A DNA stretch of 64,000 nucleotides from NCBI GenBank assembly GCA_023213395.1, contig CM041465.1:245589741-245653740 (forward strand). Reading direction: 5' to 3'. Shown piece after piece: positions 1-41,499 of this stretch. The position numbers were made by a program, and so were the translations under genes. The notes below the pieces were generated by a model. It searched no databases, was not told the DNA's origin, and saw only the letters and a list, made by a program, of their open reading frames with translations. Positions within the stretch are counted from its first letter, which is position 1. Every line of letters begins with the position of its first letter. This stretch comes from Cycas panzhihuaensis. Its lineage: Eukaryota > Plantae > Cycadophyta.

Positions 1-959
1 GGACTGTGCTGACTCAGCTGACAGTGTGCTAATGAGCTGGGCAGCCGATCTTGGCTTCGGTGAGGAATCTTGACCGGGCAACTTTCACCGACTTGGCGAT
101 ATGGTGACTCAAAGGCTTGAAGACGTGCTCGATTGTCGGTGAAGAGCGGTGGCAATGTCTTGATTGTACGGTGAGTCTTGTTCAAGACCTTCGAGTTGGC
201 GATTCGGGCACAGCCGGTCTTGGTTGTGCCTTTGTGATGATGTGGCACTTTGAGTGCTGAGATGGTAGGAGCTCGACTTGGCGAAGCCTTGGTGAGCTGG
301 AGTCAAGACCGATTTCCTCAATCCGAGTTGAGCTTGGACACTTGAGTTGGTGTCTGATTTCCAAAACAAATGATGAAAAAAAAACTAACAGTGCTTAAAC
401 AAGCTAAGTTCAGAGACCTTACAGCTCTGATACCAAATGTGGAAAAAGGGCATTAGGCCACATTAGTCCCAAGATCATAAGTACAAGCACAATACTACAA
501 ATGCATGAAAGCATAAACCATAAAGCACACAAAGAGAAATAGAAGCAAGAGAAAATGATACCCAATATGTGGAGTTGGAATTGGTCCAACCTCCAAATGA
601 ATAGCAGTTTGATTAGCAAACTGATAGCATAACAATGCAACTCCAACTCTTGTGTGAGACAATGAGGAGAGGTCTCATTATATAGAGTGAAATGAGAGAC
701 CTAAGGCCTTGGATGTTTGACAAGTGTCAAACATCCAAGATACATGCCTTGCATGTTGGACATGTGTCCTTTTGGGCTCTCATGTGAGCAAAAGTGCATG
801 AGGGTCCATTTGACCCTTTAGTGACAACGTTGTGTCACTAGAAAGAATGTGGGTGTGCACTTTATCACTTACGTGATAAGTCACCCCTAAAGTAAAAAGT
901 GCATATATTACATGAAAAATAAAAGTACATTAACTTAACATTTAAACATAAGGTTTATA
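1..959 (-). mobile_element. 5' end of an LTR retrotransposon (5' LTR 438-959, PBS 424-435, GC-rich leader running off the left edge)
   Basis: gctctgatacca (reverse complement of the iMet PBS tggtatcagagc) at 424-435, 2 nt from a TG at 438. 438-959 is the reverse complement of the LTR at 38111-38663. Confidence 0.85.
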
Positions 960-3900
960 TCTATTTGAAGCATTTGAAAATCAATAAAATAATGAAGTAA
1001 GCCAAAGTTAATCATTTCAAAATCATATTTTGAGTCATTATTGAATCTATAAATGGAAATAATATTAAAACTAATGACGACTATATTATGCACTTAAAGA
1101 ACCAGAAGAAGAATATCATCACCTCAACATTGAAAATAGGGATTGAGACATACATTTATAAAAGTCATGATCAATACATTATTTGTCAATTTTGTCATAC
1201 CAAGCTTTAGGTGCTTATTTCAAACCATACTGGCACTTCTTGTATTTACAAACCAGATTAGAACCAAATTGATAACCAGGATGCTTGGCCATGAAAATTC
1301 TCTCTTTATGATCACCATTCGTAAAAGCACATTTGACATCCATTGATAAAGTTGTAATCCAAATTTAACAATCTAAGAAATAATAAGTTTGATGGTGTTT
1401 ATTTTAATAACTGGAACAAAAGTTTCATTATAATCAAGTCCATCAATCTATGAGAAACTTGTGACAACCAATCTAGTTTTATGTTTTTCAATAACATCAT
1501 TACAATGTTGTTCAATAAATCTATTTGTAATCAACAAGATTCTTATTATAAGGAATGAGAACCAATTTTCATGTAAAAATTTTCATCAAAGCATTATACT
1601 CCTTAGTAAGTATTATCTTTAGTTTTGTTAAAAGATTTAGGATTTTTAAGTTCCACTACCTTTGCCAAGACCAAGTCCTTTCTAGGAGCAAAGGGATCAC
1701 TTGCATAAAAATCAATTAGGGCAAGGGTCTTCCTAACCCATTTAGGTTGTCTTTTAATAACTTAAGTGTTTATGTCAAAATCTACATTATGAAAATCATC
1801 TAGATCACGTTGAGGGCTACAAAGAACTTGAGAGTTAGAAGAAAAGTAGTTAGGACCATTTAAACCAAGAATGCTTGAGCTGAAAGTAATACAATTAGAT
1901 GAAGTATGAGCAATATGACCCATAGTAGTAAGCAAATGAACATTAACATACTCAAGAGAAGTATAAGCATTTGAACCATCATCATTGATCTTGACATCAC
2001 ACTTAATAAACACTTGATAAAAGTAGGATCGAAGAGTCTATAAGCTTTACACTTTTCACTATAGCCAATAAAGATATGTAAATATCTTGGGATCCAAATT
2101 TAACTTTTGTGTATTAGGAATATGAGGCCATGTAACACTACCAGCGGTCTTGAAATGTGTCACTGTAGGTTTTCTACTCGACCGTTTTTCTTCACGAGTG
2201 ACACTAAAAATAACTTTGATAGGAAGATAATGTAGCAAATAACTAATTTAATTTATTGCTTTAACCTACAATTTCATATTTAAGATCTTAGAATGTGTTT
2301 CCTAACTTCTAAGAATGGACTTGGATATGGAAACAAAGGGGTAAGTACATGCATGCTTCTCCACTCTTTTCACACCTTATTGGTATATATTTAATTTTAG
2401 ATGGTTGATGTATGCTTTGTTGGTTTGTTTGACTATTTTTCCATGCCCCCTCTTTGTCGATGACGGGTACAACTTTGGTCCATCGTCATTTAGTCCACCC
2501 ATCAAGCTCCTTGTGCTAGAAAAAGTGTCGTCCCCCAAATTGCAACTTTGTTTCTGTGTTATTTTTATTTTATTTTTTATCTATCGGGCTTTGTTTGATC
2601 TTCTGACTACTTGTTGTTGATTGTACCTACTCTTAGGATCTGCCATTAGTGAATTTGTAGCTTGTTTGCATGCCTATTTTTTGAAAAAACTAAGTTGTTC
2701 TGTATTGCTTAGTTTTCTATCTACAATAGTGGTACCGCAAAGTACTTCGTATCGTGAACATGTTTATGGTACCACTTTTACCAAACCAGATTTGAAATTT
2801 ATAGTGATAATCGACTCATTAATGATTGAATGTCAGATCTAGGCAGATCGCGTCGTCCTTAGGTCAGCCCCTGTCAGATTTGAGAGCCCCAAAAGGCCCA
2901 AATCCTCCTAAATCTTGATCTTTCCAAGTCAAACTCATGGTTTTGGTTTGATGGTTTTCTCCACATTATGGGTAAAAACCACCAACCTCTCACCTTGATG
3001 GTTTTTGTTTAATCCATTCATTTTTTTAGGTGAGGAGACCTTGAAACTATGCTAATCTATCGTTATGTTACTGAAATTCTTTCAAAATCTTAGCAACTTG
3101 TTCACTCTACTAGCATCCACTTGGAGATTGAGAGCTCTACATAAAAAACAACTTGGGAGTCCTTGAAGAAAAGGAATAACAGCTATTGGCAATCCATCAT
3201 CCTAGAGGTATAGGTAATCTACTATCTTGTTATTTTAGTTATCACTTCTTACTCTATTTTCCATCTTCATGCCATGTTTGTATGATAGAATGGTAGGATA
3301 TGTTAGTTATTTCTTTTGTATTTCAAAGTTTTCTTTGAGTCATTAACTATTGTTTTATTATTCACATGTTTTGTTTTTCTTTCTTTTAGTGTTCTTTAGA
3401 AATTGTAAGTTGAGGAATGACACTTAAGTACACTTAGGAAACCTATATCATATTGGGGGATGGTAGCCATTCTGAGGTACCTCCACTAATCTTATTCATC
3501 TTGTTTTATCACTTAGAGGTAGAATTTTGATTATTGTAAGAAGTTGCTTATCATTATTTAGAAGCTATATTTGTGTATATGCATGTATTAGTAGATCCTT
3601 GGTAGAAGTACTTGTTTTGCAGGTCACTCACTTTGGTGCAAGAAAGAAGGAAGGCCAATAAGGTGCATCACTCTCTGAATAATTTTTAGCCATCGTAAGT
3701 TTCAGCCATCATCTTGGTAAGGTAAGATTAATACTTTACTTCAGTGTTTTCTTTTATTTTTCATCATTTTAGCATTTTTTTTCTTTTCGTTATAGGTTAT
3801 TCAACAAGCAGAAATGTTGCCAGATTTTCTTTAGATTTAGATAGTAGTTTGTTTTGTTGCTACTTGCATTATCGGGAATTCCTTAGTAAATTAGGAGCAA

Positions 3901-5531
3901 GCTTCACGTTTTAAGAAATTGTTCACATATTTAGATACGTTTTTTTGGTTTAATTTGTCATTTAAAAGATCATGTACAAAAAAGAAGATGAAGAAATGAA
4001 TATATATATATATTTTTTAAATTAAAAAAAAAAAAGAGAAAAAGAAAGTAGAAAAAGGAAAGGAAAGACTTTGCTAGTTGTCTTTTAGTCCTCCCTTTTA
4101 TCTTCACCTTCTTTTCGTCTAAAATATATAGGAATCAAAGAGAAAAAAAGAACATGTGTATTTGTTTTTTTCCCTTTTATTCATTTCAATAAAAAAAAGA
4201 AAAGAAAGAGAAGAAAAAAATAAAAAAGGAAAAAAATGTTTGCATTTTCTTATTTCCATCATTTGCACATGGTTTGCATTCATAGTAGGAGTTAGGAGTT
4301 GAATTGGTTGCATATTATTTTCGTACAAACTTAAGATGTGACGAGGGACCGTGTTGTTGCGAGTTCCGAATTCGCAATGGGATAAACCACGAAGTTAGAA
4401 TTTGGAAAGCAATTGTTTGCATGTAAAAGGAAAAGAAACATATGGTTTGTATTAGGTTTATGTGGTGATTCTGCCCTCATAGTTGCTTTTAAGTTTTTTT
4501 TTTGAAAAGAAGAACAATGAAAAAGGACTCATTACAACTTCAGTGTTGACTAATCCCTACACACATGCATAAATGCCCTTTGCATTTAGTTTAACTTTTT
4601 AGGTCATCCACATACGTCTTATTACTATCGCACGCATGAAGCCCACAGATGTCCATTTCGGTGGCGTAAGATTTTGTTTACTCTCGTTAGACTTTGAACC
4701 TTAGGTCTTATGTATAACCAAAGGTATTGAATTCTCATTCCACTGACTTTTCTGGGTTCAATCTCTAGTACGGTCGCCTGTAAGATGCGTTGAAGGGTCG
4801 GTGGGATGAAATTGCAACAACTTTGGTTATATATAAAACTTAAGGTGCAAGGTCTAACGAGGGTAAGCAAAATTTTATGTTGTCGATTTAAACGTTTGTG
4901 CGCTTTGTGAGCGCGATAGCGAGAGGACGTACATGAATGGCCTAAGAAGCTAAACTAAGGGCAAATAATATTTATGCATATGTGTAGGGGTTAGTCAGTG
5001 ATAAAGTTATAATGAGTTTTTTTTTTTTTTCGTTCTTAAAAAAAAAAAACATAAATTCGACAAAAGAGTGGAGGGGATCACAACATGCATTTCATGTAAG
5101 TTATATGCTTCTTTTCCTTTTGCATATATACAATTCTTACCCTAATTTTAACTTCGTGGTATGTCCCTTTACGGATTCGGTACTCGCGGTAACACAATCT
5201 CTCATCATGTCTTGCATTTGTACGAAGATAACATGCAACCAATTCAACTCCTAGCTCTTACTATAAATGCAAAGTATGTGCAAATGATAGAAATAAGAAA
5301 ATGCATTTTTTTTTTCTTTTTTTTGAATTTCTCTTGTTTTTCTTTTTTTGGAAAGGAATAAAAGAGAGAAAACAAATACACAAATGTTTATTTTTTCTTT
5401 TTGATTCCTATATATTTTGGATAAAATGAAGGTAAAGAGAAAAGCGGGGATTAAGAGACAACTAACAAAACTTTTCATTTGTTTATTGTTCTTTCTTTTT
5501 CTCTTTTTTTATTTTTTTTTAAAAGGACATA

Positions 5532-5565
<34 letters not shown>

Positions 5566-8520
5566 TTGGTAAATGATCTTTTAAATGACAAATTAAACCA
5601 AGAAGCGTACCTGAATACGTGAACGGTTTTTTAATACATGGGATTTGCTCCAAACTTGCTAAGGGATTTTCGAGAATGTAAGTAGTAACAAAAGTAACTA
5701 GTATTTAAATTTAAAGAAAATCTGGCAGTATTTTTGCTTGTTGGATACCTTATGATGAAGAACAAGAATGCTAAAATAATAGAAAGCGAAAGAAATCATT
5801 AAAGTAAAGTATTGATCTCACCTTTTTAAGATGATGGCTAGAATGTACGATGCCTAAGAATTGTCTGGAGGGTGATGTATTGCTTGGTAACCTTGTTGGT
5901 CTTTGATCTTTCATGCATTCAAGTGAGTAACCTACAAGACAAATACTTCTATCAATGATCTACTAATACATGCTTATACATAAACGTATATTTTAAATAA
6001 TGATGAACAACTTCCTACAACAATCAAAATTCTACCTCTAAGTAATGAAACAAGATGAATGGAATTGGTGGAGGTGCTTCAGAATAACTATCATCTCTCG
6101 ATATGATATAGGTTCACTAAGTGTACTTAAGTGCCATTCTCTCAACTTGCAATTTCAAATGAACACTAAGAGAAAGGGAAACAAAACATGGGAATGAGAA
6201 GACAATGACTAATAGTTCAAAGGAAAATATGAAACACAAAAGGAACTAGTTACCATATCCTACCATTGTATCACACGAGCATGGCATGAAAATGGAAAAT
6301 TAAATAAGAAGAGATGACCAAAACAACAGAAGAGTGGATTACCTATGCCTCTAGGATGATGGATTCCCAATGGTTGCTGTTCTCCTCTTTCAAGGGCCCT
6401 CAAATTGTCTTTGATGCAGAGCTCACAATCTCCAAGTGGATGTTAGTAGAGTGAACTAAGTTGTTAAGATTCTGGAAGAATTTTAGTAGCATAACGACAG
6501 GGTAACATAGTCTTAAGATCTCTTCCCCTTCCAATGGATAAAAGGAAGGTGATTAATTAGAAAACAATAAGGTGAGAGGTTGGTGGTTTTTCGCCCACAA
6601 TGTGGAGAAAACCATCAACCCAAAATTATGAGTTTTTCCTTATGGTTTGAGAAATTTGGCTTGGGAAGAGCAAGATTTGGGTCTCTTGGACCTTTCAAAT
6701 TTGACAAGGGTCGATTTGGGGTCAACGCGGTCTATTCAGATCTGATATTTAATTATTAATAAGCCAATTGTCATCATAAATCCCAAATCTAGGTTGGTGA
6801 CAGTCGTACTACGAACATGTTCACAATACAGAGCACTTTGTGGTACTACTGTTATAGATAGGAACTAAGTGGTACGGAACAACTTAGATTTTTACAAAAA
6901 ATGAGTATGCAATTAGATTACAAACTCACCAATGGTAGATCCTAAGGGTAGGTACAATCAACAAAGTGGTCAGAAGATCAAACAAAGTCCGATGGATGAA
7001 AAATAGAGTAAAAATAACTTGGAAGTTGCAATTTGGGGAACGACATTGTTTTCAATCGAAGGAGCCCGATGGGTGGGTTAGGTGGCCATTGATCGAAGTC
7101 GTACTCGATATCGGCAAAGAGGGTGCATGGGTAAACAACTAAACAAGCCAACTAAGCATATATCAATCATCTAAAATTAAATATAGACCAATAAGGTGTG
7201 AAAAGAGTGGAGAAACATACTTGTACTTACCTATTTGTTCTCATATCCAAGACCATTCTCGGAAGCCGAGAAACAAAATGCAACATGCAAATTGTCATTT
7301 TAGCAAGTGTTTTACTTTTTCTTTTAACTAAACCATTTTGTTGAGAGATATAAGTAATATAATGCTAAAAATTATTTTCATGTTTTTTTTTCAAAGTAAA
7401 TAAACTGATTACTAATGTATTCCTTAGTATTATCAGATGTCAACATTTAAATTTTATGATCGAATTGATTTTCAATAAGGACTATGAATTTAAAAAATTT
7501 ATTAAACATATCACCTCTTTGTATGGGTATCTAAATCCAACAATTATTTGGGAAATCACCTATGAAAATAAGTAGATATTTTCGTTTGAAATAGAAGGTA
7601 CTTCAAATGGACCACAAATATTAGAGTGTGTCAACTTAAGAGAATATGAGGCTCTACAACTGGCTTTACGCAAAAAAGAATCAATGAGATGTTTTTCTAG
7701 ATCACATTCGTCACAAATTCTATACACTGTAAAAAGATTAGGAAGACCATTGGCTATGTTATACTTTTGAAAAATATTCAATTGCTCGTAACAAATACAA
7801 CTAAATTAAGCATGCGATAGTTTTATGACAAAATCATAATGAGCAATGCGTGGAGTAAAATCAAAGCTCATGCCAGATTCTTAAACATCATATCTTTGAC
7901 TAGTTTCATTAACATCATAGAGTTTATACAAGCTATAGTCATGATTAGCAATACTAGAAGTAATGATTCTATAACGATGTCTAATTTTTTATAGCAAACT
8001 ATTTTTTCTTTTAAATTCAACCTTAATAATCTTTTTGACAAAGTTGAAAAAATAGAGAGAAGATTGGGTTTCAAATATGATGCATGTTATACATTGTCAA
8101 TAGATTTGCTTTTGAGTGTAACATTCGCTGTAAATTTATAACATGAAGCTCAACACCATTGTCAATAGTAATCCTTGTGATATGATGTGAGTATAATCTA
8201 TAATCCATAAAAGAATTTGAAGTGTGAGCTGAAATGGAAGTAGCCAAAGCACTTGCTCTTGGTGTAGGATATTAGTCCCTATCTCTGCGTGCATCAGCAA
8301 ATATTTTTTTGTACAATATCTCTTAGGATGACCCTTCTCACAACAATAATAACAAATAGTATCGGCATTCAAGAGAGAAGATTGATTTGAATGTGATGCA
8401 TAATTTTGATTTCTATTTTACCTTTCGAAAGTTTGCCCTTAATAACTTGAATTTTGTCCTATGTACCCCTGAATTTGATTAGTTTGTCTCATAAAAGGTC
8501 GACACTGATGTATTAAATAT
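960..8520 (-). mobile_element. Degenerate Ty1/copia pol ('family X': gag knuckle, integrase, RT start), interrupted by 2296-7275
   Basis: Minus-strand fragments CYYCCEKGHPKRYC (CCHC, ~8320-8360) and HSNICGPFEVP (integrase, ~7600), plus RT-like sequence ~1100-1600. Many stops. Homologous to 44620-48950 and 55440-61350. Confidence 0.85.
2296..7275. mobile_element. 4,980-bp non-coding palindromic (fold-back) insertion with TG...CA termini and 5-bp TSD
   Basis: Starts TGTTTCC, ends GAAACA. 2296-~4760 is the reverse complement of ~4785-7275 along its length. Flanks gaatg (2291-2295) / aaatg (7276-7280). Removing it restores host cttagaatgcaacatg (compare cttagaatgcaatatg at ~46645). Confidence 0.92.
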
Positions 8521-8934
8521 TCTTTTGTTAAAATATGCAAATTTTCAGTATATAGAAATAATTACATACAAGTACAACAAGAAAGGGGAGAGATCGTCAT
8601 CTCCATGGTTGCTCAAATAATACACATAAAATTAGCCAAAAGTCCTATATAGGATCACATATAATAGGTCCTTATGCCAACCAAGAATCATTTAAGCTTG
8701 CACTCCATCCCTACCCTGTGCATGATCTTCCCAACTATCATCCCTCTTGTCAAGATGATTCTCCCTTAGTTTCTAGCCCTTGCGATATGTGGGCTCAACA
8801 TTAATTGACACTATTATCTACATGGTCTTGCCTTGTCTGTATGTTAGAGAACCATATCCTTAGGTAGAGGTTGAATGATTGGTGCAAGGAGGGGACGCCT
8901 AAAATGCACCTGGTTGATGGATCCTAGAATGAGT

Positions 8935-10228: not shown

Positions 10229-13200
10229 TGTTGGAATATTGATAATGCATATTTGTTTTGTCCCACATGCAAGTGGGTTCTACTTTCACTATCATGTCAT
10301 ATATTATAAATACACACATAGTGTATCATATGTAATATATGTTGTAAGGATGTTTTGTTAATACAATTTGAGGTACCTTAAGGGTACCGTTCGATCCTGG
10401 AGTTGTTTTTCTTCTGTTTGTGAATTATCTATTGCAGGTTATATTGTCCAACATGGTATTAGAGCGCTCAGGTTGAGAGAAGTGTTTTTGTTCGGTATTG
10501 GAGCGGTGATTTGAGAGGTGCCATCAAGGGTGGAAAGCAATTTTGAGAGAATAAACGTTGAAATTTCTTAAAAGTAATGGCAAAATTGAGACGAAATGGT
10601 CGTTTTGCAAATTTTGAGTGGTTGCACCACAGATTTTGGGCTGAAAGTGCGAAAATTGCGTGAAATTAATTTCGGCTGCTTTTTCCGTCACCGTATTTTT
10701 GGGACAGATCTACAACCTCGATTTCAAAGGGCCATAACTTTGGCTGTAGGTATCCAAATGACCTCAATTTTTTTTTTGATTCTGTGCGTTTATTAATTTA
10801 CTTTCTAGTGGAAGTGGTTTGAGGTTCATCAGAGTTCAGAGTGAAAAGTTATTGGTTGTTTATCAGAAGGTACTATTAAAGTCCCTAAAAACCCTAATTG
10901 TGAAATTCTTAAAAGGGGCATAACTTTTGATCTAGATATCAGAATTCAATTTAAATCGAATTAGAATTGTATTTTAGAGGCCATCATTTTCATCCATATT
11001 TTATGTATTTTTGAACTATATTTTTTTTTCAGAAACAAATTTTTTTTGGAATATAAGGGTTTCATATTGCTATGGTGATGTGAATGAGGCAATGGTAATG
11101 AGGTGATATAAGTGTTTTGCACTGTTAACTAGCGACAAAGTAGTTACATTTGGCATAGTGCTATTTTACACGTGATTTACATAAGTTGGGTAATGTTACA
11201 ATATGAGGTGACTATTTGAGGCTCTCTTGCGTATGTTGTGTATGGGAGAGTACTGTTGCAATGTGAGACAACATTAAGTCATGTTGATGTGAATGTATTT
11301 GGCACTCTATATTTGTGATTTGTGGTGTATGATGGTGATTATTTAATGACAGTTTGAGTGCTTTCTTACATATGTTTGTATGAGAGAGATATTGTGACAT
11401 AATGTGGTGATGAAGTGATAATGCATGTGACATATAGCAATTAAGTGCTCCGTGGAATGTGATTTACGTGAAGGGGGTTTATGGGTTTGATAAGGCAAAC
11501 TTGAGGGCAAGGAAAATGGTGATTTGAGGCAATGAGGTGCTTGTTACATGTGAGGTTACTGGCATGTTTTAAGGATGAGATTAGGCATGTTTTATGATGT
11601 GAACGGGCAAAGAAGGATGAGTTTGTTGAAAGACTTTGTTGAGTTGCATATGGCATGAGTTGTTTTTAGGCAATTAAGTGAAGTGTGCGTCTTGGCAATT
11701 TAATGATGACAAGAGGAGTGCATGATTTCTGTGAGATGTATGTGGCCTAGGCATTGATTTGATGGTGGAGTAAGTGTTTCAGATACTTGTTGTATATGAC
11801 TGTTTGATAATATGAGAGATGTGGTGTGAAAGATATGAGACATGAGAAATTTTATTGAGAGTGATCAATAGGCAAGTTACCAATGATAAGTGAGCTTGTT
11901 GATTAAAAAAGGGGATGTGGTGTTAGGAAATGGCATTTACAATTATGGAAGAAAATGATGTGGTTATGTATATTTCTGAAACAAATGAATACTACTTAAA
12001 GGATTCGTTTCTTCCAATACCGAAGTGTAATGGAGAAGACTATTTTTTTTGGACGATTAAAATGAGATGCCTTTTCATAGCTAGAAGTTTGTGGAAGATT
12101 GTTACTGATGGATATGATATCCCTAAGGATGAAGAAGAAAATGAAATGCTTGTGAAGAAAGACAGAAAGGCATTCATTATGATTTGTGCTGCATTCAACG
12201 AGGTTGATCTTCCTTCTGAATACCATTTTGTCATTTCTAAGATTCTACATGCAAGTACTGTTAAGGAAGCATGGGATTTTTTAAAGGAAGTATTTGAACA
12301 AACTCCTGAAGAGATACAACGTATGATTGAAAAGGCAATTAAGGTCAGTTATGGTTATGAATGCAGTACAATGAATGAAGAAAATATCATCAACACTGAT
12401 GAAATGACATGTCAAGATGAAGAATGTATGAGTACTGATGAATTTTCTACTGAATGTAAAGAAATGATGGTTGAATGTATTGATGAGACTATAACTGCTG
12501 ATGAAGACGTTGAAAGTGATGAATCGATAAAGGTTTATTTAGATGACACTTATTTCAAGAGAAATTGAATGTGAATTTGATGATTCCATAAAAGATGAGT
12601 CTTGTATTGATTCAAGTCTAAATGATGCTCCTACTTTGAGCATTGATTCAAAGAGTATGCAAGTTGATCAAGATTCCGCTCCAAAGGTTGAAGAAATCAC
12701 TGTTGTACATGGTGATCAAGAACTTCTACAGGATAATGATGACGGGCAAGTTATATTTGAAGGTGGTAACTTACAGGATCTACATCAAAATTAGACTAAA
12801 TCAAGCACAATGAAGAATCAGGAATTGCACTTGCTAGAGTTGCTACAACAACATCATGACTGCATGATGGAAGACGAAAATCAAGCTAAGGACATCATCC
12901 TACAAAGGCATCAATACAGAATTGAAGACGAAGATCAAATTAAAGGCACCATTCTACAAAAAAGACATCACTACAAGATTGAAGACAAGGATCAAGTTGA
13001 AGACATCATCTTCAAGATATTTTCAAGGACAAGGCGTTGCAAATACAAATGACCCAAATGTGCATTAAGGGGGAGTGTTGGAATATTGATAATGCACATT
13101 TGTTTTGTCCCACATGCAAGTGGGTCCTGCTTTCTCTATTATGTCATATATTATAAATACACAATAGTGTATCATATGTAATATGTGTTGTAAGGATGTT

Positions 13201-13296
13201 TTGTTAATACAATTTGAGGTACCTTAAGTGCAGATTCGATCTGAGTTGTTTTTCTTTTGTTTGTGAATTATCTATTGCAGGTTATATTTTCCAACA
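10229..13296 (+). mobile_element. Complete gag-only non-autonomous LTR element (TR-GAG-like)
   Basis: LTRs 10229-10453 and 13076-13296 (tgttgg...ccaaca), PBS tggtattagagc 10454-10465, PPT aagggggag 13067-13075, perfect TSD aatct (10224-10228 / 13297-13301). No pol motifs. Confidence 0.95.
11930..13052 (+). pseudogene. Copia-type gag with long acidic C-terminal extension (frameshift near 12560, stop at 12794)
   Basis: PKCNGEDYFFWTIKMRCLFIARSLWKIVTDGY and STVKEAWDFLKEVF match the copia gag N-terminal/UBN2 pattern. D/E-rich tail. Confidence 0.85.
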
Positions 13297-13297
13297 A

Positions 13298-14680
13298 ATC
13301 TGAGGAGTGTCACTTCCAGTGCTGAAGAGATCATGAACATAAAGCGTAATAATAAGAATCTCATCATCTAAGTGTCTCACAGATAAACTATGATCAAATT
13401 TACATCTAGTGAATACAAGTGAAGTAAGATTGTCATCAATGCACAAGTACCATGCCCTTGGTGCCTGCTTAAGCCCATGAAGAGCTTTCTCTGGCCTACA
13501 AACAAGATACTTTTGCTTAAAATGCATAAAGCCTTTAGGATGCTCCATACAGACTTCGTCATCAAGAGTGGCATGAAGAAAGACACTCTTTACATCCATT
13601 TGATGCAGTGTCCATTTAGTTGAGATGCAAGACTAATCAACATTCAGATGGTAGTCATCTTTGCTACAGGTGTAAAGGTCTACTCGAAGTCCACACCTAT
13701 TGTTTGTGCATAGCCCTTGGCCACAAGTCAGGCTTCGTATCTATCAACTACACCATTTGATCTATACTTCATTTTATATACTTGTTTACAATCAATTGAT
13801 CTTTTGTTTTGAGAAAGTTCAACAAGGTCCCATGTGTCATTCTTAAGGATAGAGTTATACTCATCCTTCATTGTTGACTACCATTGAGCCAAAACTTTGG
13901 CTTCATTAAATGGATGTGGTTCATCAATGCTAAATATTGTAGACATCAAGGCATAATTGACTTTGCTCTTACTCCTTGTTTGGACAGCTTCATCTGAAGA
14001 GTGTCACTTCCAGTGATGAAGAGATCATGAACATAAAGTGCAATAATAAAAATCTCATCATCCAAGTATCTCACATACAAACTATGGTCAGATTCACATC
14101 TAGTGAATACAAGTGAAGTAAGATTGTCATTAATGCACAAGTACCATGCCCTTGGTCCTTACTTAAGCCCGTGAAGAGTTTTCTTTGCCCTACAAATAAG
14201 TTGCTTTTGCTCAACATGCATAAGGCCTTCAAGATGCTCCATATAGATTTTCTCATCAAGAACACAATGAAGAAAGCACTCTTTACATCCATTTGGTGGA
14301 GTGTCCAGCCAAATTGAGATGCAAGATTGATCGATATTCAGATGGTAGTCATCTTTGCCACATGTGCAAACATTTCCTCAAAGTCCACACCTGTTATTTG
14401 TGCTTACCCCTTGGCCACAAGTCAGGCTTTGTATCTGTCAACTGCACTGTTTGATCTATACTTCGTTATATATACCTATCTACAACCGATTGACCTTTTG
14501 TTTGGAGGAAGTTCAACAAGGTCCCATGTGTCATTTTTAAGGATAGAGTTATACTCCTCCTCCATCACTCACTGCCATTGAGTTGAAAATTTGGCTTCAT
14601 TAAATGACTATGGCTCATTAATGCTAAACATATTAGATATCAAGGCATAGTTGACTTTGTTCTTACTCCTTATTTGAACA
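13298..14680 (-). repeat. Diverged tandem duplication (~694-bp period) of the RT N-terminal half
   Basis: atctgaggagtgtcacttccagtg at 13298 vs atctgaagagtgtcacttccagtg at 13992. tcaaggcataattgactttg ~13946 vs tcaaggcatagttgactttg ~14640. Confidence 0.9.
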
Positions 14681-15931
14681 CCTTCATCAATGTTAATGTC
14701 ATCAACCTTGGAGTCCTTAATGGTTCGGTAATACCATTTGGGTACTTTTTTAACAAGAGGAGAAGAGGAAGTACAATGCTCGTTGTTGTCCTTACTCTCT
14801 TTACATAAGTTTCATCTATTTCATAGTTTTCTTTGCCTTTATTATTTGCATTATGTGCAATGATCTCATTAAATTCATCAAACAATACATCCCTATTGAT
14901 TACAATCTTTCTCTCTACAGAATTCCAGAGCTTATATGTTTTGGATGACTCACAGTACCCAACAAGAATACATTTTTGGATTTTATCATCCAGTTTATGC
15001 TCCTTCTCACCAACCATGTGTGCATAAGCAATACGACCAAAAACACAAAGATTGCAAACAGAGGGTTTTCTATCAATCTAGGCTTCCTTAGGAGCTACAT
15101 TCCTATTGCTTTAGTGGGACTCCTATTTAACAATTAAACAACTATTTTAGTAGCTTTACCCTAGAAACCTTTACAAATACCTTTTGCGTTGAAAAAGCAT
15201 GAAATCATCTTCACAATTGTGTAATTTTTCCTTTCAGATATGCCATTCTAATGTGGAGTGTATGTTGTGGTAAATTGACACTGAATGCCATGGCTTTTGT
15301 AGAAGTTGATGAAGTCGTTTGACAAGTATTCACCTCCACTGCCGCTCTTTAAAATCTTAATTTTCTTTTCCAGAAAGGTTTCAACTTCAACTTTGGATTT
15401 TTTAAACTTGTCAAAAACGTCAGATTTATTCCTAAGGAGATAAATCCGGCATCTTCTAATGAGATAAGCAATGAAGGTCATAAAATAATTAGCACCTCTA
15501 AGTGAAGTAGGTGACTTGGGTCCATGCAAATCAAAGTGAATTAATTCAAGTTTGTCCTTAGCTTGCCCTGAAGACTTGACAAATGGATCTCTATGTTGCA
15601 TCCCTTAAGTACAACTGTCCCATTTTTTTTCTACACTCCTGAATTAAGGGAAGGACCTACACCATCTACAATTTTCTTAACAACTAAAGATTGTTTTAGT
15701 TTAAGTCATTGTAGTGGTCATGCCATAGGGTGTTAGGAGAGTCACATGTAATAAAAAAACATGTTGAAGGGTTCCAGAGAATTTATCGAGTCCATTCTCT
15801 TCAAATCCTCAAGTTATAATAACACCATTTTTCTTGATATGATACTCAGTTGCATTAAATACAACTTTCAATTGTTGTTTAGTTATGTGACTCACATAAA
15901 GCAAGTTATGTTTGTAGGAGGGTACATAGCA

Positions 15932-16567: not shown

Positions 16568-19500
16568 TAGCAAACGTAAGACACTTCAGACAACCCACTC
16601 TCAGGTTGATTAAAGTTTATAATATCTTGACCAAAACCCTTATGATGATTGTTGTTGGCAAGAATAATGCAAGAAGAGAAGCCTTCATTTATCTCGCTAA
16701 ATTGCTTTTTGTAAGGAGTGATATGCTTTGATGCTCCATAATCCAAGTACCAAATCTCTGATGCATATGTATGAAGAACCAAAAGATTACGTTCATTGTT
16801 TGCTATCAGAATAGGTGCAAATGTGGATGTAGATGCCATCTTCTTTTCTTTTTTCTTCTTCTAGTAGTTCTTTTTAGGATGACCTTTTTTATTGTAGTAA
16901 TTACAAGAAATGCCCTTTTTCCGCTTAGTAGTGGTTTTGTTGTGAGACATTTTTAGGAGGGTTCTTATAGCCCTAATTTTTAAAAGGAGTTGCTAATACC
17001 AAAGCACTGTTGCCGCGTGGGTAACTACCCATCCTTTGCTCCTCATGTAGGAGAAATCCAACAAGTTAATCAAATGACAAGGGCTTTGTTTTTCTAGTCA
17101 AACAAAGACTCGTTAAAAAATATGGTATCCTTCATGCAGGCTATTCAAAGTGATGCTAACTAGTTCCTTATCTTCTACAATCTCACCTACTGCGATAAAT
17201 TGATCTCTAATCTCCTTCACTTTTTGCATATATGAGGAGAGAGTTCTTAGTGGTCATCTTATAAGAATACAAAAGAATCCTTAGGAAGAAAACCTGAGTC
17301 TCATTGTTTGTTTCATAAAGGTCTTTTATAGTTTGCCATGTTTCAGATGCAAAGTCTTTTCCTTGCAAATGTGCAATAAGGTCATCTACCACCGACAAAC
17401 CAATGATGGCTATACCCTCTTGGTTATGATGCTCCCAATTGAGCGCATCTTTATGTGTCACTACAATAATGGATGTTGTCTCCATTGTTATAGTTGGTTT
17501 TGGTTTAGTACCTTCAAGGATCTTTGTCAATCTTTTTAAAGCCAAAATGGTAAAAATCTTGAATTTGCAAATTACATTTTTCTTTTCATTTAATGTCTAT
17601 GAATTAGGTAATACGTATCTTGAAATATTCACACTTGACATCTTAAAGAAAGAAAAAGAGGAAAAAATTATGATTTAAGATCGTAAGCATGTGTTTTGTA
17701 AATCAACTTAGAGGTTGCAGGGTGTTTTTGGAATTTTTAGCTTTCAGATCTAATGAAGAACAATGTTTTGAGGGCTCAAAAACAAACCAGAATACAAACT
17801 TGTTTTAACCTTACAAAGTTCAAAAGCTTAAAAAGGAGAATATTCAATGGGGATATTTTAATTTTAAGACAATTTTAAAACTTTCGAAAATATATGAAGA
17901 ATTTAGAAAAGTGGAGTAAGATTTTCCCAAGTGGTACAACCCATTGAATATTTTTCCAAATGTCGCAAAATTAGAAGCTCACTTAGATTTTAATCAAATA
18001 AAGATGTTAAAATAATGTGTATTTTATATAATGAAGCGTAATATTATTAATGATAATGATAATGAGTTAATTAATAGGAGGATTAGTTACTCTCATGTAA
18101 CTTTCTCGACTCCTTGATTCTCTCCTTAAATCAAGGAGTGAATTATTGTCTTTTGAAAATTTCAAACCAAGAGTTTGAAAGGTTATTACGTTGAGATCTT
18201 TAGAGTAGCCACGAGTGTGTATTGCGGGTGTGAAATAATTCAAGTTATTTTTCATTGATTTAGTTGTTGCGATCTCTACATTCTCTCTTGCTTTCTTTTC
18301 TAAATTTTGATGTAGTCCCTGTTTATCTGACATGGTATCAGAGCCCATGATTCATTTGGTGGATTATTTCTGAATTTCTTGCCATGAATAAGATGTTTGG
18401 GGCATTATTGTTGCGATTCATTATTTTCTTGTCAGTTTTTGTAGATGATATGCAAACCCATGGGGGTTTTCAGATAGAAAATGAGACATTTTTGATGGTT
18501 GTGCAGCTTTGAGACAAGTGGGCTTTCAAAACTCAGTGCTTTTGTAGTTTTTGATCTTGAGGGATTGTTTTAGACTTGTCAGAAACTAGTTTTGCAGTAA
18601 TTATTGCTTCAAAAACTAGATCTTTTGCCCTTGTTTTAGCTCTAGGAACTCATGAAGCTGGGAGGGTTTTAATATTGAATATAATGTTTTATCTATAGGG
18701 TCCTTATATTTTATTTATGGGTCTTTAGGGTCCTTTTTAGTGTTATATTGAGGGTTATGTGTCAATTTCTCTTTTAGGTAATTGTGACATGTGGCACATA
18801 TGCATAAACTCTAAATACCCACACATGTTACATATTATGATGTATAAATATGTAAAGTGTATTCATTAATTAATGATAGGTATTATTTTTCATATTAATT
18901 GTCTGTCTTAACATGGTATTAGAGTAGGCCACTTTGAGTTTATTTTGAGTCAAATTGAGAAGTCTTCTGAAGGTATCATTCATCATCTGAATGAAAGTGT
19001 CTGAGGACCTCTTTAACCATTTGTAAAGAGCATTTATTACGAAGTACGAACCGTCGTATGGATTGCACGGACAAAGATTTTTGAAAGTATTCATATTCAA
19101 ACGAAATATTACCAACAAATCCGTTTTTGAAAGCTGAACACACTTTTCCAAAGTATCGACATCAAATTCTGTCTTGAAAGGCATGTTTTACTTAGTTTTT
19201 CAAAAATGCGGGTTTTGAAGATCAACTACAGATTTCTCAAAAAAGAAGTAATCAATCTAGGTAAAATCTATCCTTAATTCATTGTTTGAAGAATACGATT
19301 CATTTAAATTTGAGTTTGTCAATTTTTGTGGAAGATTTGCAAAGATTCAAGTATTTTTCTCCAATAAACTTGAACAACCATATACTATTTGGGTCATTTT
19401 GTGAGGGTTTCACTGGTCAAAATCATTTTTTTTTTTAAGATCTGAGAAGCAAATTTCAATATCTTTCATTTGCTGAAAACATGGATATCAAATCTTCATA

Positions 19501-19899
19501 TTAATCGTTATTGAAAGGAGTTGAGTACATATTTATACTTGGTCCTACCTCTAACTCCTCCAACCATAACTGACAACTGCTTTACCTACCAATTAAGTGT
19601 TAATAAAGATGTGCATAAGCACTCTTAATGACTTAACACAACATTTCTACTGGACCCTAAAATTTAACATTAATTCTAATCTATAGAGCATGTCACAAAA
19701 CTCCCTTAGGACTATAGAATTAATGTCCCTTAGACATAATACACTCTTAGACACATTAAACATTAACTCTTAACACCCTCCCTTAATGTTTAATGTCAAA
19801 ACAACAAGAAATTGAATACTAAAGACCAACATAACATCATGACACTAAGCACTAAGGACTGACAAAAAAGTTGACATATGACTTGACATGAGACATTGC

Positions 19900-21763
19900 T
19901 TTGAACTTGCAACGCTTGAATCTTAATATCTTCTTGATGATAATGTCGTGAGCTCTATCTTTGTCCTTAGTTTATTTTGGAATGCAACAATGGTTCTTGA
20001 TATATTCTTTATTTCTGTGTAGCTTCCTTATTGAATCACTTGTTCCATCATCTCCTGTTCTTTGAATTTTGAGTTGTTTAGTGGCTGCAGCTGTATCTGA
20101 GAGATCATATTCCTGGTGTGATCCCCTTTCATAATCATTATCTCCAAGGTCAAAAGTGATAAGACATGATTTGAACTTCAAAATTTCCTTGAAGAAGAAT
20201 AAAAAGGATTTCTCCTTATTTACTTTCAAATCATCAAGTATGAGTTCTATCACTACGATCATCTTTTTTAGATATACTGATTTTGTGGAAATAAACCAGT
20301 AAAAGGTCTTTTGAAAAGGAAGAATGGATGATGACTTCTTCTTTGTTATCATGAGTACTGGTATTGATCCTGGTTCAATAAAATTTTTGGTTAACCATTT
20401 TGTTTCCTTCTCATCATCCAAGAAAGTTATTGATACGATGAACACAAAGAAGATTTTTGTCATAGTCACAAGCATAAGCTTTCTAATAACTGTTATGGTC
20501 AAATAAAGACAAAATGCTACCATAACATGATTTAACTTCACGATTGAATAACTTGTCAAATTCATGCACCAATTAGTGTAAACATATTCCATTATAAGAT
20601 CTTGACTAGGTTGCATTCCAATTACTACCAAAGTATCCTCCTTTTTGAAGAAATTTCCTAGTGCCTTTGTTGCATATGTCAACACAATCTGAACTCCATC
20701 AATGACAAGAATAGAAAATGTTGCCATATCAAATGAAACCATAAAGAATTTTGTGTACAAACATACAACTGTGTGACCTGATATCAGTTGAAATTTAGCA
20801 ACAATTCTATCAACAGAAATTATGGTAATACTATCCAAAATTTCCATTAAGGCAGTTGTGTTTCCATATTATATCACCTGTGAAAAAGGCTATCTGAAAT
20901 CAATTTCTGATTTCTCATTAATACTGGTTATTTCAAAGTTGAGCACCATCTCCTTAGCAACTTGTAATATAGTCTTTTCTGTCAAATAACTGTAACCTAA
21001 GATGTTAAAATAAAATATAGGTGAGATAATTCTCTTCTCAGGCTTCAGTTCTTCATTTTCCTTTTCTTTCTTAGATTCTGAACGATGATCTAGAGTCAAA
21101 TCATTAAACTCATTTGTTGTTTTAACAGAATCATTAATAAGTTCATCTGCAGGAGTGTGCAATAAGAACTCTTGAATCACCTTGTTGCAATCACCATTAT
21201 ATTCACTTATTTCTTTTACAATAGAGGACCTATTCGATAGATTTACATACCTTTCCTTCTTTCTTATGACAAAAAACATCAGATCAATCTATGTGAGATT
21301 CATTCTTAATAGAATTAGTTTGATTACTTGCATTCGCCTTTTTGGCTTTCCTCTTTAACTACTTTTTCTGATTCTTTGTTAGATTACTGTACATAACGTC
21401 TTCGGGGTCTTTTCATAAGCAATCCTTCAAGAGATTTCAGGCTTCTTTAGCAGTTCCAACATCACAAATAGCAGAGATGAGAAAATGGTAGGAAGGAGAA
21501 AGTTTATCTTCATCGAATGAAGCAATAATAACATCAATTGTTATTCTGTTTATTTTTCTAATTTTTTTCCCCTTTTCTACACTAGTTAAGGTAGCATCAT
21601 GTCCATCGATGATGATTTTCCATATCCCTTTGCACACAAATATACTCTCCATTTTGATTGCCCAACATTTATAATTTATTTCAGTGTACTTAGGTAAGGG
21701 AAAAGGAAAATTTGTTAACCAATATTCATTCCTTTCAGGCCCAAAAACGATGATGTCATCCAA
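19900..21763 (-). pseudogene. Copia-type gag with long C-terminal extension, disrupted
   Basis: PLPKYTEINYKCWAIKMESIFVCKGIWKIIIDGHD...YHFLISAICDVGTAKEA is clearly homologous to ORF 11930-12568. It continues as ORFs 20890-21279 and 19972-20847. Confidence 0.8.
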
Positions 21764-24700
21764 CTACATGATGTAAGGACAAGTTGATCAAAAGTACATT
21801 ACACAAGATTCATGCACCCATTTCAATTTGAAATAACTTCATCAAATAAAAAATAAAACATTTTAAATCACATTCTAGGCTATAGTACTCTGAATGAGGA
21901 TTTCGACAAATCAAATGGTTTGAAAAACAGATGCCTGGTTGAAGAGGTATCATGAAAACTATGAAGTGACCTCCTTACAAACGAAAACTGAACTAGATTG
22001 AACTTTAACTCCTTTTCCCAGATTAGTACTAGGTCATATTAAAATTGTACAGAACCAATGGCTTAATCCCTAGGGGGCTAGCGGACTTCAAAACACATTT
22101 CAATCTTATTTATTTCAAATTTAACTTTGCAAAAAAATATTGAATCCGTTTTATGAAAAATGAAGTCCATGGATTCCAAAGTAGAACTCAATGCGATTAA
22201 ATTTAACTCCCAACTTTTGAAGAAAAAACTATATTTCCTAGATCGAAAGTCAAACCTCCTACGGATTGAATTGCGAGTCGATCAAATTCATTGGATCATT
22301 CATCAATAGTTGCAGGCAAACATCTCCTCCATTGTACAACTGATATAGGCATCTGCAAGCTATTTATCCTTCATGTGGGCACAAATCTTCAAATTCGTTT
22401 TCCATGACAGACAAAGTTCTAGGCGTATCAACCTCTTACACAGGGTTTGTGGACAACATACAATTGGAGGAATGTGATATCTTCATTTATGTCTTCAGTG
22501 GTGTGTTTTTCTTCTGCAATCATTCTTATGGCGAACAACATTCTCCTCTGCGCAGTATTTGATGTTGAACAAATGTAGAACTTTGGAACCAATCAATGTT
22601 TCTAGGAATATATTGCAATCTTCATGGTCGATGGATTCTGCAGGGTTTTCTTTAATTTCATCTCCCTTTATAGTGAGACGAGGGTTTTTTGCATTCAAAC
22701 AATAGATTTGGAACGTCAATTTTTCTACCGCTTCGCTTTTGCTGCCAAGTAGCTATATGGACGACTCATGGGTCAATACGTCCATGGATTCAACGTGGGT
22801 CGACATGGCATCTTCTTTTTCTCCAACTTTTGCAGATTGAATGCCTCGGTACATTCTAATAAAACTAGAAACTGGACTGGTATCTTGTAGTCCAAAGCAA
22901 TTGCCATGAATGCAATACAACAATCTATTGAAAATATCAGTTTTTCATTATGATATGTCCTCTGAATGCACGTCTTCACCACGATATACCTTCAGTCTGT
23001 AATAGGGAATTTTCTCCCTTTTGTCTTTTCGGGTTTAATTCTTCCCCGGTTAGTGTTGCGTTGAATTTGTACAACACCTGACCCTAGTAACTCGCAGTCT
23101 CTTTGTTTAAATTCTCCGCACATGTAGTTTTTGTGGATAATAGGTGGTGATTTCCAATTTCTCCATATGCAACTCTGATTTTGGCCAACAATGGCTATTG
23201 TAATCCTTTTCGATTCTGCTACCAATTGGTTTTTCTTTAGCGAGCTACATCTTTCTCCATGGCAGGTGCACGGTAGTAGGCGCTCAACGACTTCTTCACA
23301 ACTTAGTAATCCAACGTGTTTGCAGGTATTACAATGAACAAGCTCTACAGAGGCCCTTTCATACACGAACCACAATTGGCAAATTTGATTACAGTCTCCC
23401 TTCAATCAAGGCACAAGATGCTCGAATAATCTCTTCTAAATGTTATAATCTGTTCTCTAATCAACTTTCAACAAATATAAATCTTTGTTGATTGGTATAA
23501 GACACATTACGACCGCATGAACCTACTTTGATACCATGTTGAAAACATGGATATCAAATCTTCATATTAGTCGTTATTTAGAGGAGTTGAGTATGTATTT
23601 ATACTTGGTTCTACCTCTAACTCCTTCAACCATAATTGACACCCGCTTTACGTACTAATTAAGCATTACACAAAGATGTGCATGTTAGGACCTTCATGTC
23701 CTAAGCATTAAGTCTTGACCATGGACATTAGTATTTTTTGTCACTTTAGGCCTCTATCCTAAAGTGTTCATTTGTTTGATTATAAAATTATCTTTTGTCT
23801 TGTAGTGGCTTTTTCACATGTGCTTGTAAACAATCAACTTTGGATGGCTCCATCCTTATCTTTGAGGAAAGTAGAGTTCTAATTAGATTTGTCTTGTATT
23901 GTCGATCAGTGACATGTGGTGAGATCTTGATCGTTCAATATCCTTTGCAAGGAGTCCTACTTTCCATGTTTTTGAATGTAATGTTGGAGTTAGAATTATG
24001 CTGCTGTAGCATCTCTTGTAGGTGAAGTGTTGAGATAAATTTTCCTTTCTACTTGTGTCCATAATAGGTTGAGTTGAAGTAGAATGCTTAGTCCTTCATG
24101 TTGCGATGTCCTTTCTAGTTGCTCAATAGATTCAGTGATTGTGTCATTTCCATTTGTCTTTCAATTTGGTATTAGAGCTTTGGCATCTTGAGGAGCGAAT
24201 TCAAGGCTTCGTTGCACTCCAAGGTTGGTGACGACCTTCACTATACGAAGGCGATCCAATTGGAGTAAGGATCAATTTCTTGTAAGGTTATGTTGTTGAA
24301 GGACTTTTGCACTTTAAGTTTGCAAATTTTTTCAAAGTAATTTTATGCAAATTGTCTTGCATATTTGGGTTTTTGGAGGCTAACTTGTGAGCAAAAAAAG
24401 GGATGTTGATACTAAGATTTATAGGTGATTTGGAGCCAATCTTCATGTGTCCTTACACAAGGTTAGGTTGTGTTGCAATCATTGCATTTTTGGCAAAGCT
24501 TGGTGTATAAGTAGCTCTCTTTGAGATCATATTGGCTGCTTTATGAAGTTATTTAAAACAAAAGTCTTTTTTTAATGTGTATGGAGGAGTGATACGTGCA
24601 AATTTCTTGAAATAATTAATTATTTCGAGACATTTTAAAATTTGAACTTTGTTGCCTTAAAAAAGGAGGTTTAAGGAGAAAAAGGAGGCTGTCCAAGAGA

Positions 24701-39329: not shown

Positions 39330-39765
39330 TGAGCTGTTTTCCATGATTTGTCTCCCTTTATGAGAGTTGTTTTCATACTTAAAGAGCTGTTTTCATACTT
39401 AAACAACTCGTGTTTTCATACTTAAAGAGTCGTTTTCATACTTAAATAATTGTGTTTTCATACTTAAAGAGTTGTTTTCCATGATTTATGAGAGCTTTTC
39501 ATACTTAAAGAGTCAGTTTTCATACTTAAATGACTATGTTTTCATACTTAAAGAGTTGTTTTCATACTTAAACAATTTGTGTTTTCATACTTAAAGCGCT
39601 GTTTTCCATGATTTGTGAGAGCTGTTTTCATACTTAAAGAGTTATTTTCATACTTAAAGAACTGTTTCCATACTTAAACAGCTGTGTTTTCATACTTAAA
39701 GAAAGCTTTTCCATGATTTATGAGAGTGTTTTCATACTTAAAGAGCTATTTTCATACTTAAATCA
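39330..39765 (+). repeat. Minisatellite, ~21-23-bp unit GTTTTCATACTTAAA(GAG/CAA), with periodic TTTTCCATGATTT(A/G)TGAGAG variant
   Basis: More than a dozen copies of ttttcatacttaaa. The variant unit recurs at ~39340, ~39478, ~39603 and ~39708. Confidence 0.92.
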
Positions 39766-39789
39766 TTGCTTATGTTTAGTTCTATGTCT

Positions 39790-40210
39790 CACGAATCGCC
39801 AAAAAGGCTTTATTTCGTCACTGAATCGCCAAAAGGCTTTATTTCGCTTCATCGAACTACCAAAAAGACTTTATTTTTGCCTTGCTTTGACTGTGCAAGA
39901 CAGGTTGAAATGTGTTTTTAAAGGCAGTAAGCATCGCTACTGGATCCATCAAATTTTGTGCTATAAGCATTCATGAAATTGACTTTGTACTGCATCTTTC
40001 GCTCACCGAATCGCCAAAAAGGCTTTATTTCGCTTCATCGAATCGCCAAAAGGCTTTATTTCGTCACCGAATCGCCAAAAAGACTTTATTTCTGCCTTGC
40101 TTTGACTGTGCAAGACAGGCTGGAATGTGTTCTTAAAGGCAGTAAGCATCGCTACTAGATCTATCAAATTTTGTGCTATAAGCATTCATGAAATTGACTT
40201 TGTACTGCAT
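39790..40210 (+). repeat. Array of GAATCGCCAAAAAGGCTTTATTTCG units within a ~215-bp tandem duplication
   Basis: Three short units plus a ...ggcagtaagcatcgctact...gactttgtactgcat block, present twice. Confidence 0.9.
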
Positions 40211-41499
40211 GTTGTTTTCTGAAGCTACATGCTACATGGTAAACGCTTGCTAAATAAGATAAAGCAAGTATACAAAGAATCTGAGTCGTTCTATGGCAAT
40301 TTCAAGGTTTTCGAACAAGTGTTAATTGACTTTAAGAGAAGTGATTCAAGTGTTTTTCATATCAAAAAAAGTGATATTTAATCACTAATTTTTAAACACA
40401 TTTAAGGCACCTTGCATGGTGACCTAATAACCCTTAGTCTTAAAGAGGGTTCAAAACACTTTGTACTTAATAAAAATCACTTCCTCTTTTGATCGTTGGG
40501 ACTAATTTAAAGTTCCAACACTTGGTGCTTGATGTCCATTTTCATGCAAGTGGTTCTCTTACCTTCACTTTTTCAGCATTAAAAGGAACCCACTTGTATC
40601 TTCATCCCAAGTTTTGCATTACTTATTTTCAGTACTTAAGCCTTTTTTTCAAAAAGTACTTTGCAAAACTTATTGTAATCAAGCATTTGGTTTCTTACTT
40701 GGATCAACAAAGCACTACTTTTTTCATTAAAGTGCTCATTGTAAAAACACTACTATTCATATTGATGTACTTACATTGGTTCCTCTTGAAGCCACTTTTC
40801 ATTGTAAAGCTTATCAAAGCATTTTCATAAGTGCATTTTTCCAAGCAAAAAGAAATCTAAGTTCACTTTAAAACTGCTAAAAAGTGACTTAAAATCTGTT
40901 GGAGTGGCCCAAAAAAGGTTCAAACCTTACCTCTAAATTAACCTTAAGCTTGGTGCATTCCCTAGGGGACCAACTGACCGAACGGTCAGTGCACGACAAT
41001 TAAGGTTGCTTGAGGGAAAGGAGGTTCGAAAAGGGTGTTATTGGGGCTGTGAATCCCAGGGAAAGCATGGTACGTCCATGCAGATGAACCCTACCTGCTT
41101 TGTTCTAGATTTAACTTTGCCAACTATTGGATCTCCTCCATAAGATCAAAGTTGGACCAACTCTATAGCCTAGTCCTCCACCCCTCATCATTCTATTCAG
41201 TTGTTGGATCTTCTAGTAAGATCAAGACTGCTGGTTTCGTTAGAAGGTGGAACTTAAGCGACGAAAGCTTTGAGTTTCCAAGTTATCTGCTAGCTTCAAG
41301 CTTTTATAACTGAAACATGGCTGCCATAAACATGCTAAATGCCTGCACGATTCGGTTAACAGGACAAGATAATTATCAAGAATGGAAGAGACTCACTTAG
41401 AACTTGCTAATCATGAACGAATTTTGGAGTTATGTTTCTGGGAGATTACCTCGACTAGCACTTGTTATCAATGGCGATGTTACTGTAGAACCTGATGAA

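Follow-up and report, generated by a model that had tools for sequence, protein, structure and literature searches.

How does a genome come to carry a 5-kb non-coding palindrome with the ends of an integrase-inserted element, and from what was the palindrome made? The question is raised by positions 2296–7275 of a 64,000-nt stretch of Cycas panzhihuaensis DNA (assembly GCA_023213395.1, contig CM041465.1, positions 245,589,741–245,653,740 of the forward strand; hereafter the window, to which all coordinates refer). The structure is real, old, and unusual: a fold-back derivative of a transposable element (TE), bearing an integrase signature. Our best explanation, to which we give a little less than an even chance, is that it is a decayed non-coding insertion in which one end of a multi-copy TE is present twice, in opposite orientations, produced by a single event of fold-back copying and inserted by a retroviral-type integrase.

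The element comprises two inverted arms of ~2.46 kb. In a global alignment of 2296–4772 with the reverse complement of 4773–7275, 1942 of 2448 gap-free columns match (79.3% identity), with 29 gap events between the arms and a Kimura two-parameter (K2P) divergence of 0.25. The left arm (2296–4752, plus strand) presents, read inward, one end of a multi-copy non-coding TE sequence, and the right arm (4792–7275, minus strand) is its inverted copy. The ungapped arms 4495–4752 and 4792–5049 are separated by 39 nt at the apex (4753–4791, no strand assigned), a partly self-paired loop region, and the predicted RNA fold of 4560–4990 is paired almost to its tip (−216.7 kcal/mol, z −20.9). The arms are symmetric out to the last base, with termini TGTTTC...GAAACA, and their low-complexity tracts are mirrored, including the poly-A/T and (TA)n tracts at 4000–4035 and 5490–5548. 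A preliminary description of the locus had proposed ~2.45-kb inverted arms, a short loop near 4770, TG...CA ends, and mirrored tracts, and all four are borne out.

The element interrupts a decayed Copia pol sequence. In particular, the left part of the host (958–2295, minus strand) is 70% identical to 45303–46653 and contains an SH3_retrovirus match at 1863–2099, while the right part (7276–8521, minus strand) is 67% identical to 46650–47921, the continuation of the same paralogue. The window reads as a field of old Copia relics, suggestive of a large plant genome: in a scan of 108 of the 116 long frames lying outside this element and a second fold-back described below, 23 frames match Pfam, all to retrotransposon domains and none to a host-gene domain. 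Two paralogous Copia copies in the window represent empty sites, each containing the target motif once, and removal of the element therefore restores the host, as had been claimed. When the empty sites are aligned to the two flanks, the overlap comprises 4 exact letters and a mismatched fifth. The simplest reading, which these alignments favour, is a 5-bp target-site duplication (TSD) with one G>A change, GAATG on the left (2291–2295, plus strand) and AAATG on the right (7276–7280, plus strand, from the flank comparison); a 4-bp TSD plus one extra A is possible and also fits, so the 5-bp TSD with one mismatch originally proposed stands as the favoured of two assignments. The TG...CA ends, 4–5-bp TSD, and restored host uphold the proposed integrase-type signature, and the locus shows two of the marks of a solo long terminal repeat (LTR), TG...CA termini and a 4–6-bp TSD with a restored host.

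Could the palindrome be a mirror created by assembly, or two separate copies inserted head to head? The apex and the right junction lie outside the read and contig comparison, which leaves such an origin some room, but we consider it very improbable. The arms are 21% apart with 29 indels, unlike a metagenome contig (L004, 1–5168) that is a 100% self-mirror, an assembly artefact unrelated to the element. There is one TSD around the whole unit, the host is exactly restored, and no TSD, terminus, or host DNA is present at the apex. The left junction, moreover, is spanned by records from two labelled organisms: record 9 of run X4 (organism B; 17 differences in 592 positions) and record 16 of run X5 (organism C; 4 differences in 256 positions, 31 letters of them inside the element). 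The presence of the same left junction in two labelled organisms indicates that the insertion is old and shared and is no assembly mirror, in agreement with the earlier view that arms so diverged by substitutions and indels are not one.

To what kind of sequence do the arms belong? Parts of the stretch occur in 13 of the 24 public runs listed, which come from 6 studies and bear several organism labels; none of the runs contains half of it. The contig comparison covered 1900–3950, i.e. the left junction and part of the left arm, and took in contigs at least 80% alike. Over this interval, 1341 contigs in run X1 and 1585 in run X5 match, most of them <90% alike. The small run X4 adds 77 matching contigs, and run X17 adds 34 reads, the latter all <90% alike. 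Summed depth, which is not a copy number, is mostly in the tens to >1000 within the element, versus about 3–15 in most flank bins; one flank stretch, 1969–2106, is itself repeated. The left arm belongs to a multi-copy family. Record 10 of run X4 begins at the element terminus (2295–2577, 42 differences) with 218 other letters ahead of it, and is ungapped at the site of a 5-bp deletion in the right arm; this record therefore represents an independent insertion. Among the matches listed for runs X1, X4, X5, and X17, no group of loose ends at 2296 was found. Public contigs thus reveal a multi-copy family sharing the left-arm terminus. The most widely shared stretch of the family is a small internal hairpin (2945–2988, plus strand; mirror at ~6578–6621), located in the bin with the top summed contig depth in X1 and X5 (2935–3003) and likely to be a cis-element.

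A possible but doubtful rival explanation is that the palindrome is a family trait, i.e. that the family consists of wholly self-complementary solo LTRs or non-autonomous fold-back elements copied as a unit in a short burst. The single TSD around a perfectly symmetric unit and the multi-copy family are consistent with this, and the history of the two arms bears on it directly. We considered the best-supported 40 of 389 variant sites, 38 of them within the element and two in the flank. The family's other letter is the right-arm letter at 29 of the 38 element sites, where distinct left and right lineages would give it at about half; the median share of the right-arm letter at the 29 sites is 0.85 in X1, and the share is at least 0.7 at 25 of them. 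The left-arm letters are mostly private. Loose ends at 2931 (80 and 65 contigs) follow the right-arm sequence at a place where the left arm has a deletion. At 8 of the 38, the two arms agree with each other in a letter that differs from the family's, versus ~2.4 sites expected from parallel change (rough p = 0.003), and at 6 of these 8 the share in X1 is at least 0.7; the arms are therefore closer kin to each other than to the bulk of the family. For the comparison of arm-to-arm with copy-to-copy divergence called for earlier, 17 non-orthologous contig pieces are available: their difference from the left arm is 16.5%, and that between the two arms over the same stretches is 17.6%, with pieces <80% alike left out and some of those included possibly orthologous to the right arm. 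The contigs over 1900–3950 show no division into a left-arm and a right-arm lineage, which counts against a palindromic family. The arms, to judge from these sequences, were probably near-identical at insertion and diverged in place, a state that a one-off fold-back explains equally as well as a palindromic family does. With a K2P of 0.25, the arms are further apart than the members of four LTR pairs in the window (0.06–0.18) but closer than the host is to its paralogues (0.32–0.35).

The mismatches between the arms are themselves biased. On the plus strand, 249 are of G·U type and 124 of A·C type (p = 9e-11), a pattern that resembles selection for pairing in an RNA hairpin. We rejected this interpretation, since neighbouring Copia relics carry the same strand-biased mutation. 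Specifically, the sign is likewise toward G·U in 4 of 4 long pairs of inverted Copia paralogues (p from 0.01 to 1e-11), and a short LTR pair shows it without significance (10:5), while 2 of 2 direct tandems show no such excess. Polarised private changes in 15 Copia segments, scored on the plus strand, comprise 234 C>T versus 102 G>A and 198 A>G versus 127 T>C, a bias that is independent of element orientation, and G+T is in excess on the plus strand in 7 of 8 8-kb blocks. The wobble-type share of the arm transitions is 0.668, versus a local neutral share of 0.654 (p = 0.59); the arm share equals the local neutral share, and most arm differences therefore arose in place. The G·U excess thus stems from regional mutation bias, with no sign of selection for pairing, a further point against a palindromic family. 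In human DNA, according to the accessible text of PMC1391917, transcribed regions are recognisable by an excess of G+T and A>G on their forward strand. By analogy, the window may be part of a giant intron read on the plus strand; no exon was seen in the window, and a replication bias is an alternative source of the strand asymmetry. Strand-biased mutation of this kind makes G·U mismatches about twice as often as A·C mismatches and so mimics selection on RNA structure.

The content of the element is non-coding. The longest stop-to-stop frame is 109 aa; a Pfam scan of 41 of its 48 frames of at least 40 aa gave a single match, below cutoff, in keeping with the earlier finding of no open reading frame; and tblastx of the element against the rest of the window gave no match. 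No remnant of a reverse transcriptase (RT), GIY-YIG, or transposase domain was seen in the scanned frames or, for transposase, by tblastx within the window. No motif resembling a primer-binding site (PBS) or polypurine tract (PPT) is common to both arms, consistent with the absence of both in the preliminary description, and no direct repeat was found within 2296–7275. Rfam gave no match at the gathering cutoff across the window and 8 weak matches below cutoff in the element, the best being a generic microRNA hairpin at the apex, far under its cutoff; no tRNA was found. The terminal 40-nt unit on the left (2296–2335, plus strand) is itself a TG...CA hairpin, with 1 of 1000 shuffles folding equally well, and its mirror on the right (7236–7275, minus strand) is likewise a hairpin (3 of 1000 shuffles). 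The two units are inverted rather than direct and therefore do not represent a mini-LTR pair.

Other features may point to a particular end of an LTR. Both arms retain three inward-facing donor-like motifs, at 2340–2345 (plus strand) and near 3213 and 3721, and acceptor-like motifs near 2630, 3615, and 4596; in each class, 3 conserved motifs face inward versus 1 outward, which are small numbers. The outer 1.5 kb of the arm is mostly T-rich when read inward. We take these inward splice-like motifs and this T-richness to resemble the promoter-and-leader end of a long LTR. The arm likely represents the initial 2.46 kb of a long LTR, in which case the palindrome would contain two promoters directed toward one another.

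These features would be accounted for by a nascent strand that runs inward from the terminus, snaps back ~2.46 kb in, and recopies itself to the terminus. In one variant, the snap-back would occur on cDNA and result in a molecule whose two integrase ends are alike. In the other, it would occur while a copy that had already been inserted was under repair, and the last switch would take place at the terminal unit, which is self-complementary; a switch at that unit would keep the original TSD. The symmetric TG...CA ends, the 4–5-bp TSD, and the multi-copy family terminus support fold-back copying of a TE end followed or preceded by integrase-type insertion.

A second such structure is located in the same window. 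The sequence at 57513–60477 (no strand assigned; inverted alignment) is a near-whole palindrome of ~3 kb, situated in the same Copia family as the host of the first and unrelated in sequence to 2296–7275, with outer arms 83% identical (K2P 0.19); it is arguably as odd as the first. AATAT is present on both sides, and removing one copy restores paralogue spacing. Direct LTR-like repeats of 76 bp (57517–57592 and 60401–60476; 80% identity, K2P 0.235; elsewhere in our analysis the LTR-like units are delimited as ~80–105 bp) bound the element, and its right terminal unit is a 105-nt hairpin. The left repeat is followed by what we take to be a PBS-like motif for initiator methionine tRNA (iMet; 57596–57607, plus strand), and the right repeat is preceded by a mirrored motif that we likewise take to be iMet-PBS-like (60358–60369, minus strand), at the place expected of a PPT, where no PPT was found. 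From its sequence, the mirrored PBS could prime the second strand. In one reading, the element is an in-place fold-back that switched template at the inverted ends of the LTR itself; in another, it replicated as a palindrome. In either case, fold-backs of LTR-element ends recur in the window, and this second example, built from LTR, PBS, and leader parts, would support the fold-back origin of the first and hints that the genome may produce such hairpins often.

The same example can be turned toward a palindromic family, since its direct LTR-like repeats and 5-bp duplication look as if it had been reverse-transcribed in palindromic form; Cassandra, as characterised in the accessible part of PMC7215508, provides a precedent for self-complementary LTRs. 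The unit at 2296–7275, however, lacks the direct repeat, PBS, and PPT that its own reverse transcription would need.

The TGT...ACA ends also fit a cut-and-paste DNA transposon. A Ginger-type derivative had been proposed, and part of that proposal survives: Ginger1, with a 4-bp CCGG/CCGT-specific TSD in the available text of PMC2836005, is rejected for a target of (G)AATG, and GingerRoot, with a 6-bp TSD, terminal inverted repeats (TIRs) of 100–150 bp, and mostly TA...TA ends in the available text of PMC6839031, is rejected likewise, while the ends and TSD of Ginger2/TDD fit. The element would then be a fold-back derivative of a Ginger2/TDD-type transposon generated by aberrant gap repair, with the arm as a giant TIR. 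According to the accessible sections of PMC2836005, TDD-4/5 make 5-bp and other Ginger2 elements 4-bp TSDs, and Ginger1 transposase genes have introns; long, extended TIRs are described for Galileo in the part of PMC4168063 available, where its TSDs are, in contrast to those here, 7–8 bp. The sub-terminal hairpin may correspond to repeated transposase-binding motifs. We nevertheless consider this origin unlikely. Ginger TIRs span only 40–270 bp in the accessible sections of PMC2836005, a tenth of the present arms, and the hosts named there are protists, animals, and a fungus, not plants. The element retains no trace of a transposase, its terminal 7-mer is not repeated along the arm, and the most shared stretch of the family is 650 bp inside rather than at the tip, a position that edge effects may bias.

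A Penelope-like element inserted with inverted pLTRs, of a group that can be intron-bearing and occurs in conifers, would also give facing arms, and the available text of PMC8557442 describes such elements as forming inverted structures and retaining introns. We regard this as highly improbable, and direct membership of the Penelope-like group was rejected. The one-sided 30–40-bp tail that is usual, though not obligatory, in the group is absent, with both arms ending on the same base; no hammerhead was found by Rfam or motif scan, although some clades lack it anyway; and no RT or GIY-YIG remnant, a TSD of only 4–5 bp, and TG...CA ends complete the disagreement.

Several points weigh against fold-back copying of an LTR end. 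No PBS, PPT, LTR pair, or gag-pol linkage that would directly mark the arm as an LTR was seen. The fold-back must end exactly at the terminus, which is demanding for an LTR with short inverted ends, and two fold-backs in 64 kb are hard to reconcile with a rare accident. A palindromic family is possible, as the apex is outside the 1900–3950 interval of the contig comparison. The best-supported 40 of 389 sites favour high-share sites, with contigs <80% alike left out, and the arms have diverged slightly more in some parts than in others (p = 0.03).

Among known systems, none coincides with the element. A Sukkula LTR is ~5 kb long. Solo LTRs and large retrotransposon derivatives (LARDs), such as Sukkula (named in PMC7215508), are like the element in TG...CA ends, a ~5-bp TSD, a size of ~5 kb, non-coding content, and nesting in a retrotransposon, whereas here the entire unit consists of one end repeated in inverted orientation, with no LTR pair, PBS, or PPT found. 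Assignment as a LARD or a terminal-repeat retrotransposon in miniature (TRIM) was rejected, the element having neither two direct LTRs with PBS and PPT nor an RNA structure kept by selection. The TRIM Cassandra likewise has LTR-type sequence that is non-coding and for which a long hairpin fold is predicted, but its LTRs, as described in the same part of PMC7215508, are short, contain 5S sequence, and occur as direct pairs with a PBS, whereas the arms here are 2.46 kb, match no Rfam family, and show no evidence of pairing selection. Mu killer and endogenous inverted-repeat small interfering RNA loci (accessible part of PMC10827316) are likewise TE ends rearranged to inverted repeats that would give hairpin RNA against their own family; the palindrome here, in contrast, is bounded on either side by integrase-type ends and flanked by a TSD of its own. 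Ginger2/TDD shares inverted ends, TG...CA, and a 4–5-bp TSD, with arms here ten times the length of Ginger TIRs and no transposase (PMC2836005, in part). Troyka, with a 3-bp TSD in the accessible text of PMC12440569, is not relevant here. Our literature search, outside of which subscription papers mostly fell, yielded no account of an LTR-type element that is palindromic throughout, is kilobases in size, and has a TSD.

The window contains further features of its own. At 19471–23683 (minus strand, AT-rich), open frames of 298, 132, and 137 aa lie between 146-bp direct repeats (89%) and include what we take to be zinc-knuckle-like and RT-like motifs; the frames gave no Pfam or protein-search match, and the locus looks like an endogenous plant pararetrovirus-like sequence or captured cargo. 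A Copia-like element at 10229–13296 is bounded by an LTR pair of 94% identity. Its interior contains a long leader and a gag-like frame (Retrotran_gag_2) that has an acidic tail, no pol was seen, and the element resembles non-autonomous elements that carry gag only. Copia pol segments are duplicated head to tail at 49067–51546 (~1.2 kb, 80%) and 13298–14688 (0.7 kb, 86%), and a Copia-like leader carries tandem arrays of short units (39331–39768) and a 214-bp duplication (39788–40213). Metagenome scans returned no match to a 25-nt pattern and 26 loci for a 17-nt pattern, none related beyond the motif.

What the palindrome means depends on whether it is a single case or one of a family. Today the arms contain 5 runs of at least 21 perfect pairs, or 19 when G·U on the plus strand is counted, and the palindrome is probably now inert; the transcript of a young copy, by analogy, would form a 2.4-kb hairpin able to feed small RNAs against its own family. 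The arm-to-arm divergence of fold-backs may date insertions as that of LTR pairs does. If the event was a one-off, the locus represents a natural inverted repeat of the "killer" type, large in size and made from a retrotransposon end, and illustrates a route to hairpin loci with clean integrase junctions. It is conceivable, if doubtful, that the plant lineage carries giant, wholly self-complementary, non-coding LTR-derived elements inserted whole by integrase, one of them a 5-kb hairpin whose two ends are alike and another a hairpin of 3 kb with a mirrored PBS in the place of the PPT, in which tRNA might prime both strands. If the apex recurs in other copies, the family would represent an undescribed kind of mobile element, missed by LTR finders, which need direct repeats, and by finders of miniature inverted-repeat transposable elements, which need short elements; and if such a class of giant hairpin elements exists, its members would travel as passengers of their parent families and at the same time act as silencers built into them.

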